64,000 bases of DNA, from the NCBI GenBank assembly GCA_963826785.1, contig CAWGYD010000008.1, forward strand, positions 1 through 64,000, given 5' to 3'. The notes below the pieces were generated by a model. The model saw only the letters and a program-made list of their open reading frames with translations. It was not told where the DNA came from and did not search any database. The translations under genes and the position numbers were made by a program. Shown here piece after piece: positions 6,137 to 56,930 of the stretch (within the stretch, counting starts at the first letter, position 1; each line of letters begins with the position of its first letter). This DNA is from an uncultured delta proteobacterium. GTDB taxonomy: Bacteria; Desulfobacterota; Desulfobacteria; Desulfobacterales; Desulfosalsimonadaceae.

Positions 6137-6546
6137 GGCATAAGCGATAGCTTAACGCATAGTATCCCCGTGTACCAGGGGATCGAAACCGCACTTTCCC
6201 GGCCTCCAAGGCATAAGCGCTAACTTAACGCATAGTATCCCCCCCGTAATCATCCTTTATGTCATTCCGGCAGTCTTTTAGCCGGAATCCATCTAAATGA
6301 TTGCGGGATACTTTTTGGTGAACTCTTCCACGAAATTGTTTCTATGTTCCCAAACTCGCTTGATGAGGTCGGAGGTCACACCGATATAACGGGTGCCGTT
6401 TCTTTTATTTGCAAGAATGTATACCGCTGGTTGCCTGTTCATTTCGTCTTCCTGGATTCCGGCTTAAAGACTGCCGGAATGACGCTCATAAGAGGAACGA
6501 CAAATTAGAAGATATCATGATCGGTCATTAAATCAGCGCTTATGCC
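6137..6546. mobile_element. GIY-YIG/REP element copy 1 (internally deleted, duplicated left end)
   Basis: Left ends GGCATAAGCG(A/C)TA(G/A)CTTAA at 6137 and 6210; REP palindromes at 6261-6290 and ~6454-6483; right end TTAAATCAGCGCTTATGCC at 6528-6546. Confidence 0.8.
6293..6442 (-). pseudogene. GIY-YIG nuclease remnant with a 141-bp in-frame deletion
   Basis: Near-identical to 28288..28578, but the segment between the two ATAC tetramers (28303 and 28444 in that copy) is missing. Confidence 0.85.
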
Positions 6547-15842: not shown

Positions 15843-15903
15843 AATCTTCTAAACCTTCGATATGCAGTGCCTGACGGCACTAGTTAAAAATTGAATCAGA
15901 TTT

Positions 15904-16035
15904 GATGCAGTCGTAAAAAGTCGGATTTCTCTCTTTTGTCATTCCGGCGAAGTCCTGAATCTATCATAAGCTAAGATAGATATGGACTTCGGTTTTCACC
16001 GGGGTGACGAATTTTGGACTTTTTACGAATGCATC
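15904..16035. mobile_element. 132-bp MITE carrying a REP doublet, with a perfect 6-bp TSD (AGATTT)
   Basis: TIRs GATGCAGTCGTAAAAAGTC / GACTTTTTACGAATGCATC; AGATTT at 15898-15903 and 16036-16041. Confidence 0.85.
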
Positions 16036-16073
16036 AGATTTGCATGTGGCAAAAATTAAGAATATGATGTTTC

Positions 16074-22691: not shown

Positions 22692-23100
22692 GACATAAGT
22701 GCTAACTTAACGCACGTATTCCCCCCACAATCTCCTCACCGTCATTCCGGCAGTCTTTTAGCCGGAATCCATCTAAATGATTGCGGGATACAAATCCTCC
22801 CACTCGGGATTCGTTTTCTCAATCAAATGCATTTTCCACTTTCGTTTCCAGCCTTTCAATCGTTTCTCCCGCTGGATAGCAGATTCCATACTTCCATGAA
22901 GCTCATACCAAACCAAAGCATGGACGCCATATCTTTTGGTGAACCCTTCCACAAAGTTGTTTCTATGTTCCCAGACTCGCTTGATGAGATCGGAGGTCAC
23001 ACCGACATAAAGGGTGCCGTTTCTTTTATTAGCAAGAATGTATACCGCTGGTTGCCTGTTCATTTCGTCTTCCTGGATTCCGGCTTAAAAACTGCCGGAT
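22692..23100. mobile_element. GIY-YIG/REP element copy 2 (right outer end not visible)
   Basis: GACATAAGTGCTAACTTAA at 22692; REP GTCATTCCGGCAGTCTTTTAGCCGGAATCC at 22741-22770; inverted REP at 23075-23099. Confidence 0.75.
22773..23063 (-). CDS. GIY-YIG nuclease family protein
   Basis: AVYILAN..GTLYVGVT, KRVWEH, AIQREKRLK.W.R.WK, NPEW. Confidence 0.92.
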   Translation of the reverse strand: MNRQPAVYILANKRNGTLYVGVTSDLIKRVWEHRNNFVEGFTKRYGVHALVWYELHGSMESAIQREKRLKGWKRKWKMHLIEKTNPEWEDLYPAII

Positions 23101-23129
23101 AAAATGACGAATTGATGAGCCGTAAAAAA

Positions 23130-28112: not shown

Positions 28113-28204
28113 GGCCCCCTCCTTACATTACATTACATCAATGAACCACCGGCCAAAGCCGATGGATTAATTCACCCTGCCCATCATATAATTCCCCCCT
28201 CGAG

Positions 28205-28681
28205 GGCATAAGCGCTAACTTAACGCATAGTATCCCCCCCGTAATCATCCTTTATGTCATTCCGGCAGTCTTTTAGCCGGAATCCATCTAAATGATTGCG
28301 GGATACAAATCCTCCCAATCGGGATTCGTTCTCTCAATCAAATGCATTTTCCACTTTCGTTTCCAGTCTTTCAATCGTTTCTCTCGCTGGATAGCAGATT
28401 CCATACTTCCATGAAGCTCATACCAAACCAAAAAATGGACTCCATACTTTTTGGTGAACCCTTCCACGAAATTGTTTCTATGTTCCCAAACTCGCTTGAT
28501 GAGGTCGGAGGTCACACCGATATAAAGGGTGCCGTTTCTTTTATTTGCAAGAATGTATACCGCTGGTTGCCTGTTCATTTCGTCTTCCTGGATTCCGGCT
28601 TAAAGACTGCCGGAATGACGCTCTTAAGAGGAACGACAAATTAGAAGATATTGCATCGGTCATTAAGTTAGCGCCTATGCC
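28205..28681. mobile_element. GIY-YIG/REP element copy 3 (complete, 477 bp)
   Basis: 19-bp TIRs GGCATAAGCGCTAACTTAA / TTAAGTTAGCGCCTATGCC; inner inverted REPs at 28256-28285 and 28590-28619; flanks CCTCGAG / CCTTGAG. Confidence 0.85.
28288..28578 (-). CDS. GIY-YIG nuclease family protein
   Basis: 96 aa; differs from 22773..23063 at only six residues. Confidence 0.92.
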   Translation of the reverse strand: MNRQPAVYILANKRNGTLYIGVTSDLIKRVWEHRNNFVEGFTKKYGVHFLVWYELHGSMESAIQREKRLKDWKRKWKMHLIERTNPDWEDLYPAII

Positions 28682-28776
28682 CCTTGAGGGGGGCTTGGGG
28701 GGTGTTCCCCCTTGCAAATATATTCAAATCCCGGAAAGCCGCTACACCCCCCTTTGTCCCCCCTCAAGGGGGGAAT
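28682..28776. repeat. CCCCCCT-NN-AGGGGGG hairpin doublet overlapping the ferredoxin stop codon
   Basis: ccttgaggggggcttggggggtgtt ... ccccctcaaggggggaat. Confidence 0.8.
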
Positions 28777-29036: not shown

Positions 29037-29056
29037 TTCTTTTGTGCCCGAATGTT

Positions 29057-29188
29057 GATGAACCCGTAAAAAGTCCGAAGTTCGTCACTCCGGTGAAAAC
29101 CGGAGTCTATAACCAACTTAGTTTGTAGTAGATTCCGGCCTCCGCCGGAATGACGAAAGTGAAAAATCCGACTTTTTACGGCTTCATC
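29057..29188. mobile_element. 132-bp MITE with REP doublet; TSD AATGTT/AATCTT
   Basis: TIRs GATGAACCCGTAAAAAGTC / GACTTTTTACGGCTTCATC; nearly identical to 35736-35867. Confidence 0.88.
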
Positions 29189-29193
29189 AATCT

Positions 29194-35496: not shown

Positions 35497-35735
35497 TCGA
35501 TCGATCGCCTTTCTCACATGCACCCCCTGCCGGATGATGACGCCCCGGGGCCACAATGGCCGCCTGAACCCCCTATCCTTTATCTCTGCGCCAACCCTTC
35601 CTGCTGTACGGGCATTGCCTGAGCATCCGGCAGGGGCGCGGGTCTGCCGGTTATTAAAAGCGTCTGCCCCGTGGAAATCCTTTTCTCCGGTCCTTGTTTT
35701 TCGCCGAATCATCTTTATTTTAAAAAGTTAAAAGT

Positions 35736-35867
35736 GATGAACCCGTAAAAAGTCCAAAGTTCGTCACTCCGGTGAAAACCGGAGTCTATAACCAACTTAG
35801 TTTGTAGTAGATTCCGGCCTCCGCCGGAATGACGAAAGCGTAAAATCCGACTTTTTACGGCTTCATC
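35736..35867. mobile_element. 132-bp MITE with REP doublet; perfect 6-bp TSD (AAAAGT)
   Basis: Same TIRs as the 29057 copy; AAAAGT at 35730-35735 and 35868-35873. Confidence 0.9.
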
Positions 35868-35914
35868 AAAAGTGTGATCGACAATTTTTTTTACTTGTAA
35901 AGGAGTCAACACGT

Positions 35915-52034: not shown

Positions 52035-55000
52035 TCAGAAAAGTTCGATAAAATTTCCGATCCAGTAGGGGCCGTCTTCAGGGGCGTTTACCCCTTTGGT
52101 AATCCGCTGGATGGGAGACGGGAATTTGATTTTTCCGCAGAACCAGTCCGGGTAGAGCAGATCGCCCAGCCAGGGGATCTTTATCACTTTGTCCCCGCAG
52201 GGAAAATCGATGATGTCCTTGCTGTAGTACCCGATTTCATCACCGCTGCCAAGCTGTCCGTCCCCGTTTTTGTCCAGAATAGCCACCAGGTAGGCCGTGC
52301 GCTCGAGCAGACCGCCTGCATCCACCCCCTTGATCAGGGGCTGGGGGGGGCGGTTGTTTTCGTAAACCACGATCTGTTCGTACAAAGCGGTCAGTATGGG
52401 AAGTTTGCGGGTGCACAGTGTGCAGGGTTTCTCTCCGATGCCGATATAGTCGTACGCCGTGGGCGAAAGGATGTCCGCGCCCAGGATGTAGTCCATATCG
52501 ATATTGAATTCGATTTTCCCCGCTGCAGATATGCCGATGGAGATGCCGTCCACATGGATGGCCAGAACAATCAATTGTGCCCGCTCCATATTGAACGATC
52601 CGGTGTGGCTCAAGTCCAGTGCATAGCTGATGGACGCATCGAAATCATAGAGCAGCTTGTTCACCTTGAATTCGTAATCCTCCGGGGGGACGATGTTCTT
52701 GCCGCAGGAAAGTTCAACCGTAAACTGATATGTCCGCTTGTTCACCATCAGCCCGAGCTTGTCTCCCCGGGTGGGCACGGGAAAGCCGCCGGAAGAATCC
52801 CTGTCCCACAGGGCGGCGATCATCACCTGATCCCCCGGCTTCAGGTCGGTATTGGACAGGTCGATATCGAAATAAACATCCATGGCCGGCATTTTGTAAA
52901 AATACTTCAGGGCGGAATACGGGTCTTCCAGAATATCTGCGGGATTGTCCGAGTCGAAGACGAAAATATACATGGGATAATCATCGGAATAATATTCCGA
53001 AAACATGGAAAAGGTCCCGGCGATGGAAATGTCGTATCCGGACGGCTTAGGGATGACGAAGGTAAAGGAAATGTCAATGCCGGTCAAAGACGTTCCGTCA
53101 TCGATGTAAACGAGCGATGAAAATTCACCGCCCCGGTCGTAGAATCCGATCTTATCGCCGGCGTCGATGCGGCCGTTCTGGTTGGCATCCAGCAGGGCGA
53201 TCAACTGGACGTTGTCCATGGGCACGTTTTTCCCGTAAGGAATGATATCGATGGTATAAGGGGCCGGACCCGGCGCCTTGGCCATGGAAGTGTAGCCGAT
53301 CACGGAATTTACGTCGATGGCGGAAAAATCGGAAGATGTGATTTCGCCGGCATACGCCACGACATACACGTCCCCTGCTTCCCCGCCCCGGATGTTTCCG
53401 GAAACCGAAGCATGATAGTCGAATACCTCCCGGGAAATATCGATTGCAAATCCGTAATTTTCACCGGAAGTCAATGTCAGTGCCGGTGAAATGGTGCCCT
53501 CATTAAAATAGATGCCTACAAAATCGCCCCGGGTGAGATTGGGAAGCCCGCCGGCAAAGTCGCGGTCCCACAAACCGATCACCATGACCTGATCTCCGGG
53601 AGCGATTCCGGCGGCGGCCAGATCGAAACAAAATTCAGTGGTGGACCTGGGCATTTTAGCAAAATACCGGATTGCGGAAAAAGGGTCTTCCATGACGGCC
53701 GCGGGATCGCTGCCGTCCAGCACGGCGATGTAAACCGGCGCCTGCTGCTGTGAGTAGTCACCGGGAATGCTGAAATGGCCGGTGATGGACAAGGGGATAT
53801 CCGACGGTTCGGATATGGTGAAGGTAAAGGCGATGTCGATATTGGTCAGGGAGGTGCCATCATCCAGGTAGACCAGGGATGAGAATTCTCCTCCGCGGTC
53901 GTAAAACCCGATCTTGTCGCCCCCGTCCGCGCGTCCGTTTTTGTTGGCATCCAGCAGGGCGATCACCTGCACCTTTTCCAGGGGCACGTCTTTGCCGTAG
54001 GGGAGGATGTCGATGGTGTAATTTGCCGGACCCGGTGACTTGGAAACAGCCGTATACCCCATGACGGCATTGATATCGATGGCGGAAAAATCCGATGATT
54101 CGATATCCCCGGCGTAAGCCACCACATACACATCCCCCTTGTCCTGGCCCATGATTTTCCCGGAGATGGCGGCCTGATAATCATACACTTGCCTGGAAAT
54201 ATCGATGGCAAATCCGGAATTGTCCCCGGAAGTAAGCGTCACCGCCGGGGTGATGCGCCCCTCCTGAAAATAAATGCCGATGAAATCGCCTGCCGTCAGG
54301 TTGGGCAGCCCGCCGGCAAAGTCGCGGTCCCACAGGCCGATGACCATGACCTGATCCCCCGGAACAATGCCGGCACCAGCCAGGTCGAATGAAAACCCGG
54401 TGGTGGTTTTGGGTATCCGGGCAAAATACCGGATGGCTGAAAATGGATCATCCAGGATGGTTTCGGGATCATTTCCATCGAGTACGGCAATGTAGACCGG
54501 CGCCTGCTGCTGTGCATAGTCACCCGGAATGGTAAAATACCCGGAAATGGATAAAGGGATATCCGATGGTTCGGATAGGGTAAAGGAAAATGCGATATCG
54601 ATGCCGGTCAGCGCAGTGCCGTCATCGATACGGACCAGCGATGAGAACTCACCGCCCCGGTCGTAAAATCCGATCTTGTCGCCCCCGTCCACCCGCCCGT
54701 TTTTATTGGCATCCAGCAGGGCGATCACCTGAACTTTTTCAATGGGCACATCTTTGCCGTAGGGAAGAATGTCGATGGTGTAATCCGCCGGCCCGGGCGC
54801 CTTGGAGATGGCCGTATACCCGATGACGGCATTGACATCGATGGCCGAAAAATCCGACGATTCGATATCCCCGGCGTAAGCCACCGCATAGACATCGCCC
54901 TTGTCCTCCCCCTGAATTTGTCCGGAAATAGTGGCATTATAGTCGAACACCTCCCGGGAAACGTCGATGACAAACCCGGAATTGTCCCCGGAAGTAAGCG

Positions 55001-56930
55001 TCACCGCCGGCGTGATCCGGCCCTCCTGAAAATATATGCCGATAAAATCGCCCACGGTGACATTGGGCATCCCGCCCGCAAAATCGCGGTCCCACAATCC
55101 GATCACCATGACGTTATCACCCGGGACAAACCCGAGGGCCGCCAGATCAAAGGAAAACTCGGTCGTCGTTTTTGGAATTTTGGAAAAGTAACGCACCGAA
55201 TTGAAGGGATTATCCAGTATGGCTTCGGGATCGTCCCCGTCCAGTACGGCGATAAATACCGGCGCTTTTTGCTCCGCATAGGTGCCGTCGATGGTAAAAT
55301 GGCCGGAAATGGACAAAGGGATATCCGAAGGATCGGAAACCGTAAAGGTCGGCTCCAGGTCAATTTCGGTCAGGGCGGTGCCGTCATCGATGAAGAGCAG
55401 GGTGGAAAATTCTTTCCCGGCGCTGTAAAACCCGATCCTGTCGCCGCCGTCGATGCGGGCATTTTTGTTGGCATCCAGCAGGACGATGACCTGCACATCC
55501 TTAATGGGAACATCTTTGCCATAGGGGAGAATATCGATTGCGTATGCCGCCGGTTCCGATGTCTTGGAGAGGGCGGTGTACCCGATGACGTCATTTACGT
55601 CGATGGCGGTGAAATCGGATGATTCGATTTCCCCCGCATAAGCCACCACGTAGACATCCCCCTTGCCGCTTCCGTAAATCTGCCCCGATATGGACGCCGT
55701 ATAATCAAACACTTCCCGGGTGATATCAATGGTCAAACCGGAGTTATCGCCTTGATTCAGCGTCACCGCAGGGGAAATCCGGCCTTCTTCAAAATAAATC
55801 CCGATCATGTCGCCGGGGGTGAGATTGGGCAGCCCCCCCGCAAAATCGCGGTCCCACAGACCGATCACCATGATTTCATCGCCGGGAGAAAGGCCGGCCG
55901 CACCCAGGTCAAACGAAAACTGGGTCGAGTTTTTGGCAATCCTTGAAAAGTACCGGATCGATCCGAAGGGATTTTCCAGAACGGCCTCCGGATTCTGCGC
56001 ATCAAACACGGCGATGTAGACCGGCGGCGCCTGATCATCATAGGATCCCGGGAGAGTGAAATTGCCGGACAGCAAGACCGCTGCTTCTGACGGATCGGAA
56101 ACCGTGAAGGAAAAAGAGATGTCAACGGCGGACAGTTCGGTATTGTCCTTAATCGTAAGCAGGGTGGAAGAGAAACCTTCCCGGGCGGAATAAAAACCGA
56201 TCTTGTCCCCGCCGTCGATCACCTGGTTGGCGTTGGCGTCCAGCAGGGCAAACACCTGCACGTTTTGAACCGGCACATTCATGCCGTAGGGGAGGATGTC
56301 GATGGTATACGGCGTCGAAGCGGCTTGTTTGGTGATATTCTGATAACCGATGACGGCATTGACATCCACGGCGGAAAAATCCGATGATGCAATGTCACCG
56401 GCATACGCCACCAGAATCACATCCCCGGTTTCCTCGCCCAGTATATTCCCGGAAACAGAAGCCGTATAGTCAAACACTTCCCGGGTGATATCGATATGAA
56501 ACCGGTCATCGATGCCTTCCTTGAGCAATACTGCCGGCGAGATCTTTCCGGGTTCGAAATAGACGCCGATAAAATCGCCGGGGTCCGGGAAAGGCACATC
56601 ATTGGTATAATTGTGATCCAGAAAGGCGATCAGGAAAATCTCGTCTCCGGGGGACAGGTTCTGACGGGACAGGTCCACCGTAAAGGAATTGTTTTCCCGG
56701 TCGGCCACGACATAAGCGAGGATCGCCTCCTTGGGACGGTTTTCCAGAATATCCCTGTCCAGGGTATTGGCAACGGCCACCAGCACCGGGGCATCGCTGT
56801 CAGCCAGACCCTCGGGAAGGCTGAACGTGCCGGTGAGGACCGGCCCGGTGTCTTTTGAATCGTCACCGCACCCGGCCATGCATGCCAGCAGGATCAAAAA
56901 CATCCAGATATGGAATTTACGGATATGCAT
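52035..56930 (-). CDS. Giant acidic lipoprotein built from ~6 tandem 254-aa two-domain repeats
   Basis: Lipobox MAG-C; REVFDY anchor recurs at 765/762/762/762/774-nt spacing; DxNxNG motifs. Confidence 0.88.
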   Translation of the reverse strand: MHIRKFHIWMFLILLACMAGCGDDSKDTGPVLTGTFSLPEGLADSDAPVLVAVANTLDRDILENRPKEAILAYVVADRENNSFTVDLSRQNLSPGDEIFLIAFLDHNYTNDVPFPDPGDFIGVYFEPGKISPAVLLKEGIDDRFHIDITREVFDYTASVSGNILGEETGDVILVAYAGDIASSDFSAVDVNAVIGYQNITKQAASTPYTIDILPYGMNVPVQNVQVFALLDANANQVIDGGDKIGFYSAREGFSSTLLTIKDNTELSAVDISFSFTVSDPSEAAVLLSGNFTLPGSYDDQAPPVYIAVFDAQNPEAVLENPFGSIRYFSRIAKNSTQFSFDLGAAGLSPGDEIMVIGLWDRDFAGGLPNLTPGDMIGIYFEEGRISPAVTLNQGDNSGLTIDITREVFDYTASISGQIYGSGKGDVYVVAYAGEIESSDFTAIDVNDVIGYTALSKTSEPAAYAIDILPYGKDVPIKDVQVIVLLDANKNARIDGGDRIGFYSAGKEFSTLLFIDDGTALTEIDLEPTFTVSDPSDIPLSISGHFTIDGTYAEQKAPVFIAVLDGDDPEAILDNPFNSVRYFSKIPKTTTEFSFDLAALGFVPGDNVMVIGLWDRDFAGGMPNVTVGDFIGIYFQEGRITPAVTLTSGDNSGFVIDVSREVFDYNATISGQIQGEDKGDVYAVAYAGDIESSDFSAIDVNAVIGYTAISKAPGPADYTIDILPYGKDVPIEKVQVIALLDANKNGRVDGGDKIGFYDRGGEFSSLVRIDDGTALTGIDIAFSFTLSEPSDIPLSISGYFTIPGDYAQQQAPVYIAVLDGNDPETILDDPFSAIRYFARIPKTTTGFSFDLAGAGIVPGDQVMVIGLWDRDFAGGLPNLTAGDFIGIYFQEGRITPAVTLTSGDNSGFAIDISRQVYDYQAAISGKIMGQDKGDVYVVAYAGDIESSDFSAIDINAVMGYTAVSKSPGPANYTIDILPYGKDVPLEKVQVIALLDANKNGRADGGDKIGFYDRGGEFSSLVYLDDGTSLTNIDIAFTFTISEPSDIPLSITGHFSIPGDYSQQQAPVYIAVLDGSDPAAVMEDPFSAIRYFAKMPRSTTEFCFDLAAAGIAPGDQVMVIGLWDRDFAGGLPNLTRGDFVGIYFNEGTISPALTLTSGENYGFAIDISREVFDYHASVSGNIRGGEAGDVYVVAYAGEITSSDFSAIDVNSVIGYTSMAKAPGPAPYTIDIIPYGKNVPMDNVQLIALLDANQNGRIDAGDKIGFYDRGGEFSSLVYIDDGTSLTGIDISFTFVIPKPSGYDISIAGTFSMFSEYYSDDYPMYIFVFDSDNPADILEDPYSALKYFYKMPAMDVYFDIDLSNTDLKPGDQVMIAALWDRDSSGGFPVPTRGDKLGLMVNKRTYQFTVELSCGKNIVPPEDYEFKVNKLLYDFDASISYALDLSHTGSFNMERAQLIVLAIHVDGISIGISAAGKIEFNIDMDYILGADILSPTAYDYIGIGEKPCTLCTRKLPILTALYEQIVVYENNRPPQPLIKGVDAGGLLERTAYLVAILDKNGDGQLGSGDEIGYYSKDIIDFPCGDKVIKIPWLGDLLYPDWFCGKIKFPSPIQRITKGVNAPEDGPYWIGNFIELF

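Follow-up and report, generated by a model that had tools for sequence, protein, structure and literature searches.

The window analysed here is a stretch of 64,000 nucleotides (CAWGYD010000008.1, positions 1 to 64,000, forward strand; assembly GCA_963826785.1) from an uncultured delta proteobacterium of the lineage Desulfobacterota; Desulfobacteria; Desulfobacterales; Desulfosalsimonadaceae, whose genome assembly comprises 4.43 Mb in 11 contigs and is 87.8% complete. At 28207-28679, the window carries a cassette of 473 bp with 17-bp inverted ends terminating in CAT, enclosed by an 11-bp target duplication with one mismatch (Table 1). The cassette splits a CCCCCC-TYGA-GGGGGG hairpin of a host repeat family, the C-tract/G-tract REP, and its ends sit 32 and 43 bases outside two inner 31-bp hairpins (28256-28286 and 28589-28619), which are inverted relative to each other and surround a gene for a 96-aa GIY-YIG protein. 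This is the only gene of the unit, and the reading as an autonomous insertion sequence was therefore rejected, since a transposase of its own is absent. The initial annotation had proposed the inner palindrome pair around a GIY-YIG gene, the missing transposase and the insertion into a palindromic repeat, and all three were found; its inverted ends are real as well, although the unit measures 473 bp rather than 477, the ends 17 bp rather than 19, and the direct flanks 11 bp rather than about 7. A promoter and terminator scan of the cassette gave a signal at the level of shuffled sequence.

Table 1. Features of the cassette, its insertion site and its sister copies in the window (positions are those of the window).
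Feature	Positions	Strand	Remarks
Left part of the host C-tract/G-tract REP hairpin (target)	28189..28206	+	The empty site, when rebuilt, agrees with the repeat family and forms a 6-bp stem
Left copy of the 11-bp target-site duplication	28196..28206	+	
Left 17-bp terminal inverted repeat	28207..28223	+	Same sequence as the end of IS186/IS421
Hairpin on the downstream side of the gene, SRM-like (CGTC-type), with an 8-bp stem and a 9-nt loop	28256..28286	+	One mismatch to the SRM pattern in the available text of PMC11893778
Gene for a 96-aa single-domain GIY-YIG nuclease, likely Ssn family	28288..28578	-	Y8, Y19 and E66 present
Hairpin on the upstream side of the gene, SRM-like, in inverse orientation to that at 28256..28286	28589..28619	-	
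Right 17-bp terminal inverted repeat	28663..28679	-	Agrees with the end of IS186/IS421 at 16 of 17 positions
Right copy of the 11-bp duplication	28680..28690	+	One C/T mismatch
Right part of the host REP with G-tract tail	28680..28712	+	
Decayed two-ended sister copy	6139..6544	+	Left end present twice (6139, 6212); gene truncated after codon 45 (codons 46-96 lost); imperfect duplication; same REP family
One-ended sister copy, about 93% identical	22694..23104	+	Left end kept; gene at 22773-23063 (minus strand) intact; second hairpin damaged

It is important to note that the length of a target site can be misread where the target's own GG/CC mimic the ends of the repeat. We assign the outer GG/CC to the target, and the borders of the unit to 28207 and 28679, because the copy at C5:294105 carries CC, and not GG, before its left CAT and yet shows a perfect 11-bp duplication. 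The same delimitation follows from a metagenome scan for ends conducted without requiring GG, which gave 135 ends and 65 two-ended candidates among the matches listed: GG precedes CAT in 18 of these 135 ends and CC in 78.

The 19-bp end pattern gave 27 matches, against one for the reversed control pattern, and 12 two-ended copies were identified in the genome, so these repeats occur beyond chance. A near-match end at C6:38078 falls within a coding frame, and we took it to be fortuitous. The 12 copies include six of full length, five derivatives of 245 bp and one that is decayed; seven have a perfect 11-bp duplication, two an 11-bp duplication with one mismatch and two a 12-bp duplication with one or two mismatches, and in the last one the duplication is decayed. 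All full copies are only 0-4 substitutions away from that of the window, one of them being frameshifted, which bears out the recent spread that had been suspected, together with the expectation of further copies. The derivative keeps 18 codons of the gene and occupies five sites, four of them with perfect duplications, and for this reason the gene is dispensable in cis; since all derivatives of the genome retain both hairpins, with intact genes present in trans, a role for Ssn in trans is possible. One-ended or decayed relics are found at window position 22694, C10:21.2 kb, C11:4.7 kb, C8:322.7 kb and C6:202 kb. The sister copies placed by the initial annotation at 6137-6546 and 22692-23100 are thus only partly as described: the former is two-ended and sits in the hairpin REP but is decayed, and the latter has its left end, with neither right end, duplication nor hairpin flank found. 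Altogether, 28 of the 41 hairpins of the inner subtype in this genome lie inside IS186-ended elements, and six of its seven intact Ssn-type genes owe their location to IS186-type ends. A free Ssn-type paralogue, 63% identical and with its own hairpin variant, was observed at C4:167247-167525 with no IS186-type ends. We also observed that three copies (that of the window, with duplications at 28196-28206 and 28680-28690, C3:319655 and C5:314836) carry two unlike duplications, one with TCGA and one with TTGA, TCGA being always on the AATT side of the REP; this asymmetry could be due to damage or to palindrome correction during gap filling.

The 96-aa product of 28288-28578 contains a single Pfam domain, PF01541 (E 7.8e-15). 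Similar proteins form Ssn, a family of single-domain GIY-YIG proteins flanked by NTS/SRM hairpins, which cut single-stranded DNA just upstream of the hairpin; according to the available text of PMC11893778, the GIY-YIG genes of this family as a rule lie between such hairpins. The premise that REP-flanked genes are classically RAYT transposases, from which the initial annotation argued, overlooked it. With its single GIY-YIG domain, the protein falls within the size range of Ssn (under 150 aa), and the spacing of Y8, Y19 and E66 equals that of Y6, Y17 and E64 in SsnA, a comparison made by position only. The strict SRM pattern has no match in either inner hairpin, and both match it with one mismatch in the loop region. 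Judged from its sequence, the protein likely belongs to the Ssn family. The intact proteins encoded at 28288-28578 and 22773-23063 differ at six residues, exactly as had been noted from the letters; between the two genes, dN/dS is 0.20, with eight of 15 changes silent (p 0.004). Together with the presence of the catalytic residues, this ratio makes the cargo gene look functional. For the L295/L286 pair of other genomes, dN/dS is 0.97 on just five changes. Solved structures gave one weak match (1zg2), and the plasmid collection gave one partial match of 70% to a GIY-YIG gene, with no cassette found in that collection.

All 12 two-ended copies are inserted in the same host REP family, 11 of them at the centre of the hairpin and one in the tail. 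The register of insertion varies among copies, and so do the loops at the insertion sites (TCGA, TTGA, TGGA and TGCCA), each of which is duplicated with its own sequence. Among the copies listed, the rebuilt sites read CCCC-N7-GGGG in eight of nine cases and CCCC-N7-CCCC in the remaining one, and none of the 251 GGGG-N7-CCCC sites of the genome is used by them. According to the available text of PMC5009759, the target of IS186 is GGGG(N6/N7)CCCC; the local polarity, with the C run first, is its mirror. Among the metagenome ends listed, 104 of 128 carry G or C in at least five of the six outer positions, the commonest polarity being G first (65 of 128), with C then G in 17 of 128. The genome contains 883 CCCC-N7-GGGG sites, 706 (80%) of which are within the host REP, and because of this concentration hairpin reading is inseparable from a sequence preference coupled with selection against coding hits. 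Strict hairpin targeting was accordingly not retained: preference and selection can explain the target pattern, and reading of the hairpin may add to the choice of the host REP. As an observation on this repeat family, the single DUF559 gene of the genome (C5:9468-9773, L312) has the host REP on both flanks, suggesting that it is the partner nuclease of the C-tract/G-tract REP.

The ends of the cassette match those of a plasmid element annotated as IS421 at 17 of 17 positions on the left and 16 of 17 on the right, and this element shares 99.9% identity with IS186A of E. coli K-12. At both ends, all eight fixed positions agree with CAT-------AA--TAA, the signature given for the IS231 subgroup in Table 1 of PMC2266710 along with a duplication of 10-12 bp; the table of PMC6352166, as far as available, places IS421 in this subgroup, also with 10-12-bp duplications. 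In agreement with this length, 11 of the 12 two-ended copies show 11-12 bp with 0-2 mismatches, the twelfth being decayed. The same ends bound elements of 1.3-1.5 kb in other phyla, each with one long gene, whose proteins match DDE_Tnp_1 in five of five cases and pass the cut-off of the IS4 model in four of five. The YREK motif is present in nine of nine transposases, IS421 included; the first D-D spacer is 54, just below the published 60-110, as it is in IS421 itself. The nearest named plasmid relative of these proteins is the IS421 transposase, at 34%. In other genomes, 35 of the 65 two-ended candidates among the matches listed show a duplication of 11 bp that has no more than one mismatch.

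The transposase with matching ends that had been suggested as a check exists in other phyla, and none was found by protein searches in this 87.8%-complete assembly: tblastn with eight transposases gave no match at E 0.01, and NF033592 had three matches, all below its cut-off. Four genome matches to PF01609 were considered and set aside, as tblastn links none of them to the IS186-type clade. Orphan ends seem to be common, because the end motif occurs in 52 and the transposase in five of 401 genomes of the same class, a difference to be read knowing that drafts lose IS copies. The empty sites on which the initial annotation had also counted were not seen: the genomes searched include none of the same genus, and no empty allele appeared in the sequencing runs, all of which contain less than a fifth of the words of the region, four of them with 6-14% and none bridging the site. 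No RNA run was listed.

Ssn relatives were identified in 54 of the 401 class genomes. We examined the 29 nearest Ssn loci of other genomes, found by protein alone, for an IS186-type end within 200 bp with at most three mismatches: six have such an end, two of these at both sides, and since the other 23 have none, most Ssn modules are free. The 11-bp duplication of L295, read by eye, has one mismatch, and L276 and L282 show 4-mismatch relics of ends. The end scan of contigs of other genomes, which gave at least 122 stretches from many phyla, added at least two more complete Ssn cassettes (L031, L047) and at least six cut ones. In the Ssn protein tree, where 6 of 33 branches are well supported, a single clade for the ten TIR-flanked Ssn rows was rejected by the AU test (p-AU 0.00086), and a single origin was discarded with it; this non-monophyly fits either repeated capture or repeated loss of ends.

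Ssn is not the only cargo of IS186-ended miniatures in other genomes, which carry Ssn, DUF559 or bare REP doublets of several REP types. Among the matches listed, 46 of the 65 two-ended candidates have a duplication within two mismatches, nine of them being transposon-sized and 37 short, and an internal inverted repeat occurs in 29 of these 37 short elements versus 2 of 54 control windows taken 400 bp away. A repeat was scored if it exceeded all 40 shuffles; this contrast is overstated, as the rows include relatives, the shuffles were mononucleotide and the controls are probably mostly coding. Examples of IS186-ended cassettes are L035:2528-2950, L037, L068:2218-2604 and L073. Those of L035 and L068 contain DUF559 genes with their own hairpins, and L073 has, behind one end, a frameshifted Y1-transposase-like gene below the Pfam cut-off. 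A variant end, CATAAGCGCTCAAATAAG, was observed in L038, where it bounds an SRM doublet nested just inside the IS186-type end.

A second, unrelated miniature of about 134 bp was observed in the same genome, with TGATG...CATCA ends and an SRM-like doublet inside. It has 35 paired copies genome-wide, 25 of them with an exact 4-bp duplication, and those in the window lie at 29056-29189, 35735-35868 and 15903-16036. The segment 23111-23128, where the right end of the 22694 copy would be expected, resembles an end of this family. Three of its copies hold a group II intron with RVT_1 and GIIM (C10:16660-18641, C5:280851-282832 and C5:304619-306607, the latter in L309), which, read by eye, sit at the GTCA tag beside the hairpin. 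This insertion after hairpins is reminiscent of group IIC introns. The window also contains, at 52035-56930 on the minus strand, an open frame of 1631 aa with five internal repeats at 762-bp spacing.

Considering all this, we regard it as highly probable that the cassette is a transposase-less unit with IS186-type ends, moved in trans by an IS186-like DDE transposase and carrying the Ssn module with its hairpins as cargo. The initial annotation had offered this as the second of two options, a nuclease riding in a non-autonomous transposon that lands in a hairpin repeat, and the evidence supports it; of the signs by which passive cargo was to be recognized, the ends do match a catalogued IS, whereas the targets are non-random and the nuclease shows no sign of inactivity. 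In the mechanism that we propose, the transposase would bind the 17-bp ends, excise the unit and insert it at C or G runs spaced 7 bases apart. The host REP would be targeted because most such sites lie there, with a possible contribution of the hairpin. The Ssn protein would cut single-stranded DNA just 5' of its own hairpins, by analogy with the activity described in the available text of PMC11893778, and would play no part in the jump. The mover was unseen in the assembly, where no IS186-type transposase was found; its gene may have been lost, may be transient, or may be located in the unassembled 12% of the genome.

A reading in line with the first option of the initial annotation, in which the GIY-YIG protein itself mobilises the whole unit in a RAYT-like or homing-like manner and targets the host hairpin, would account for the lack of a cognate transposase in the assembly and for the retention of both hairpins in all derivatives, with intact genes in trans; in addition, the Discussion of PMC11893778 notes that NTS-ssnA-NTS is IS-like. 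We consider it very improbable, however, as the borders are IS186/IS421 ends placed 32 and 43 bases beyond the hairpins, a duplication of 11 bp, as in the IS231 subgroup, results from a staggered DDE attack, the gene-poor derivative occupies five sites, and the same ends move elements that contain neither Ssn nor SRM. Furthermore, the activity of SsnA in the available text of PMC11893778 is single-stranded DNA cutting only, with no joining described. Five Y1_Tnp matches were considered for an involvement of RAYT and dismissed, all being elsewhere in the genome. There is hardly any probability left for a spread of the copies through recombination or gene conversion among host REPs, or for an assembly artefact. 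Although the sites all fall in a single repeat family and the two duplications of some copies are unlike in their central base, the register varies, one copy is in the REP tail, and the loops each come with their own duplication, so that site-specific duplications largely refute this reading; in addition, a contig of an independent run contains the interior of the cassette with 0 differences over 376 bases.

A further explanation is compatible with the transposase-borne cassette and assigns the nuclease a role before the jump: the transposase moves the unit, but nicks made by the nuclease 5' of hairpins provide ends for repeated capture between IS186 ends. We find it rather unlikely, even if several observations agree with it, namely the six of 29 nearest Ssn loci with an IS186-type end within 200 bp, the rejection of a single clade for TIR-flanked Ssn proteins, the internal inverted repeats in 29 of 37 short elements versus 2 of 54 controls among the matches listed, the purifying selection on the cargo gene, and the common 245-bp deletion, which begins exactly at a hairpin edge. 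This edge, however, is 3' of the hairpin, whereas cutting by SsnA occurs 5' of it according to the available text of PMC11893778, and the spacer between end and hairpin ranges from a few bases to more than 50, with no fixed offset. The other hairpin families and DUF559 found as cargo are explained equally well by a general influence of hairpins or of surroundings rich in REPs, and loss of ends explains the non-monophyly equally well, given the relics in L276 and L282; few branches of the tree are well supported.

Our results suggest that hairpins and their nucleases likely spread by riding on a borrowed transposase. As to the spread of CGTC-type REPs and Ssn nucleases, in their available text the 2013 survey (PMC3733652) did not find a dedicated transposase and the 2025 paper (PMC11893778) reports only an IS-like layout. 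As a tentative extension, to which we give limited credence, IS186-type ends might serve across phyla as a general vehicle for REP doublets and for nuclease modules linked to REPs (Ssn, DUF559 and probably Y1 transposases), capturing them repeatedly with the aid of nuclease nicks and dropping them into another nuclease-linked REP family. If this were true, the IS186-type vehicle would supply the missing transposase for CGTC-type REPs, and the locus would comprise three nested selfish layers, an Ssn module in an IS186 cassette in a DUF559-linked REP. One end is identical to that of the E. coli IS186, which makes the idea directly testable in E. coli.

The cassette shares with IS186/IS421 the 17-bp ends, the CAT termini, a duplication of about 11 bp and a target of G/C runs spaced 6-7 bases apart, and differs from them in lacking a transposase, in its size (473 bp versus 1339), in having the C run first in its target and in landing in a REP family. 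Beyond the 17-bp ends, it resembles neither IS186 nor the other autonomous elements compared, and, on visual comparison, its spacers do not resemble the subterminal DNA of the long elements compared, in which their parent was sought. The closest precedent in organization is MIC231 of the B. cereus group, transposase-less IS231 cassettes with passenger genes for which transposition in trans has been demonstrated (PMC6199540, available text): both consist of two IS231-subgroup inverted repeats around a passenger gene. The present cassette is smaller (473 bp versus 0.7-3 kb), occurs outside the B. cereus group, has a repeat-linked nuclease module as its passenger and does not have the CA region next to the left repeat, the C run of its left spacer not being followed by an A run; because of its size and the absence of this region, we call it MIC-like rather than MIC231. 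With RAYT/REP units it has in common an inverted hairpin pair around a nuclease gene, with the difference that the enzyme is a GIY-YIG protein (PF01541) and not an HUH (Y1) tyrosine transposase. The inner hairpins, with their CGTC/TGTC tag, 8-bp stem and CCA tail, are like the CGTC REPs of Di Nocera et al. 2013 (PMC3733652), for which no dedicated transposase was found according to the available text; here, most hairpins of this subtype are inside IS186-ended elements (28/41). The likeness to SsnA of Neisseria meningitidis (Chenal et al. 2025, PMC11893778) lies in a protein of about 95 aa whose gene is located between two inverted GTCATTCC...GGAATCCA hairpins; the differences are a hairpin that has a 9-nt loop and departs from the strict SRM pattern by one base, and the wrapping of the module in IS ends that multiply it, which is not described in the available text of that paper. 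The open-access literature searched yielded no paper describing Ssn modules within IS186 or IS4 cassettes. Every component of the cassette is already known, their combination is one for which we found no published description, and what is gained is a route of spread rather than a new enzyme or a new class of element.
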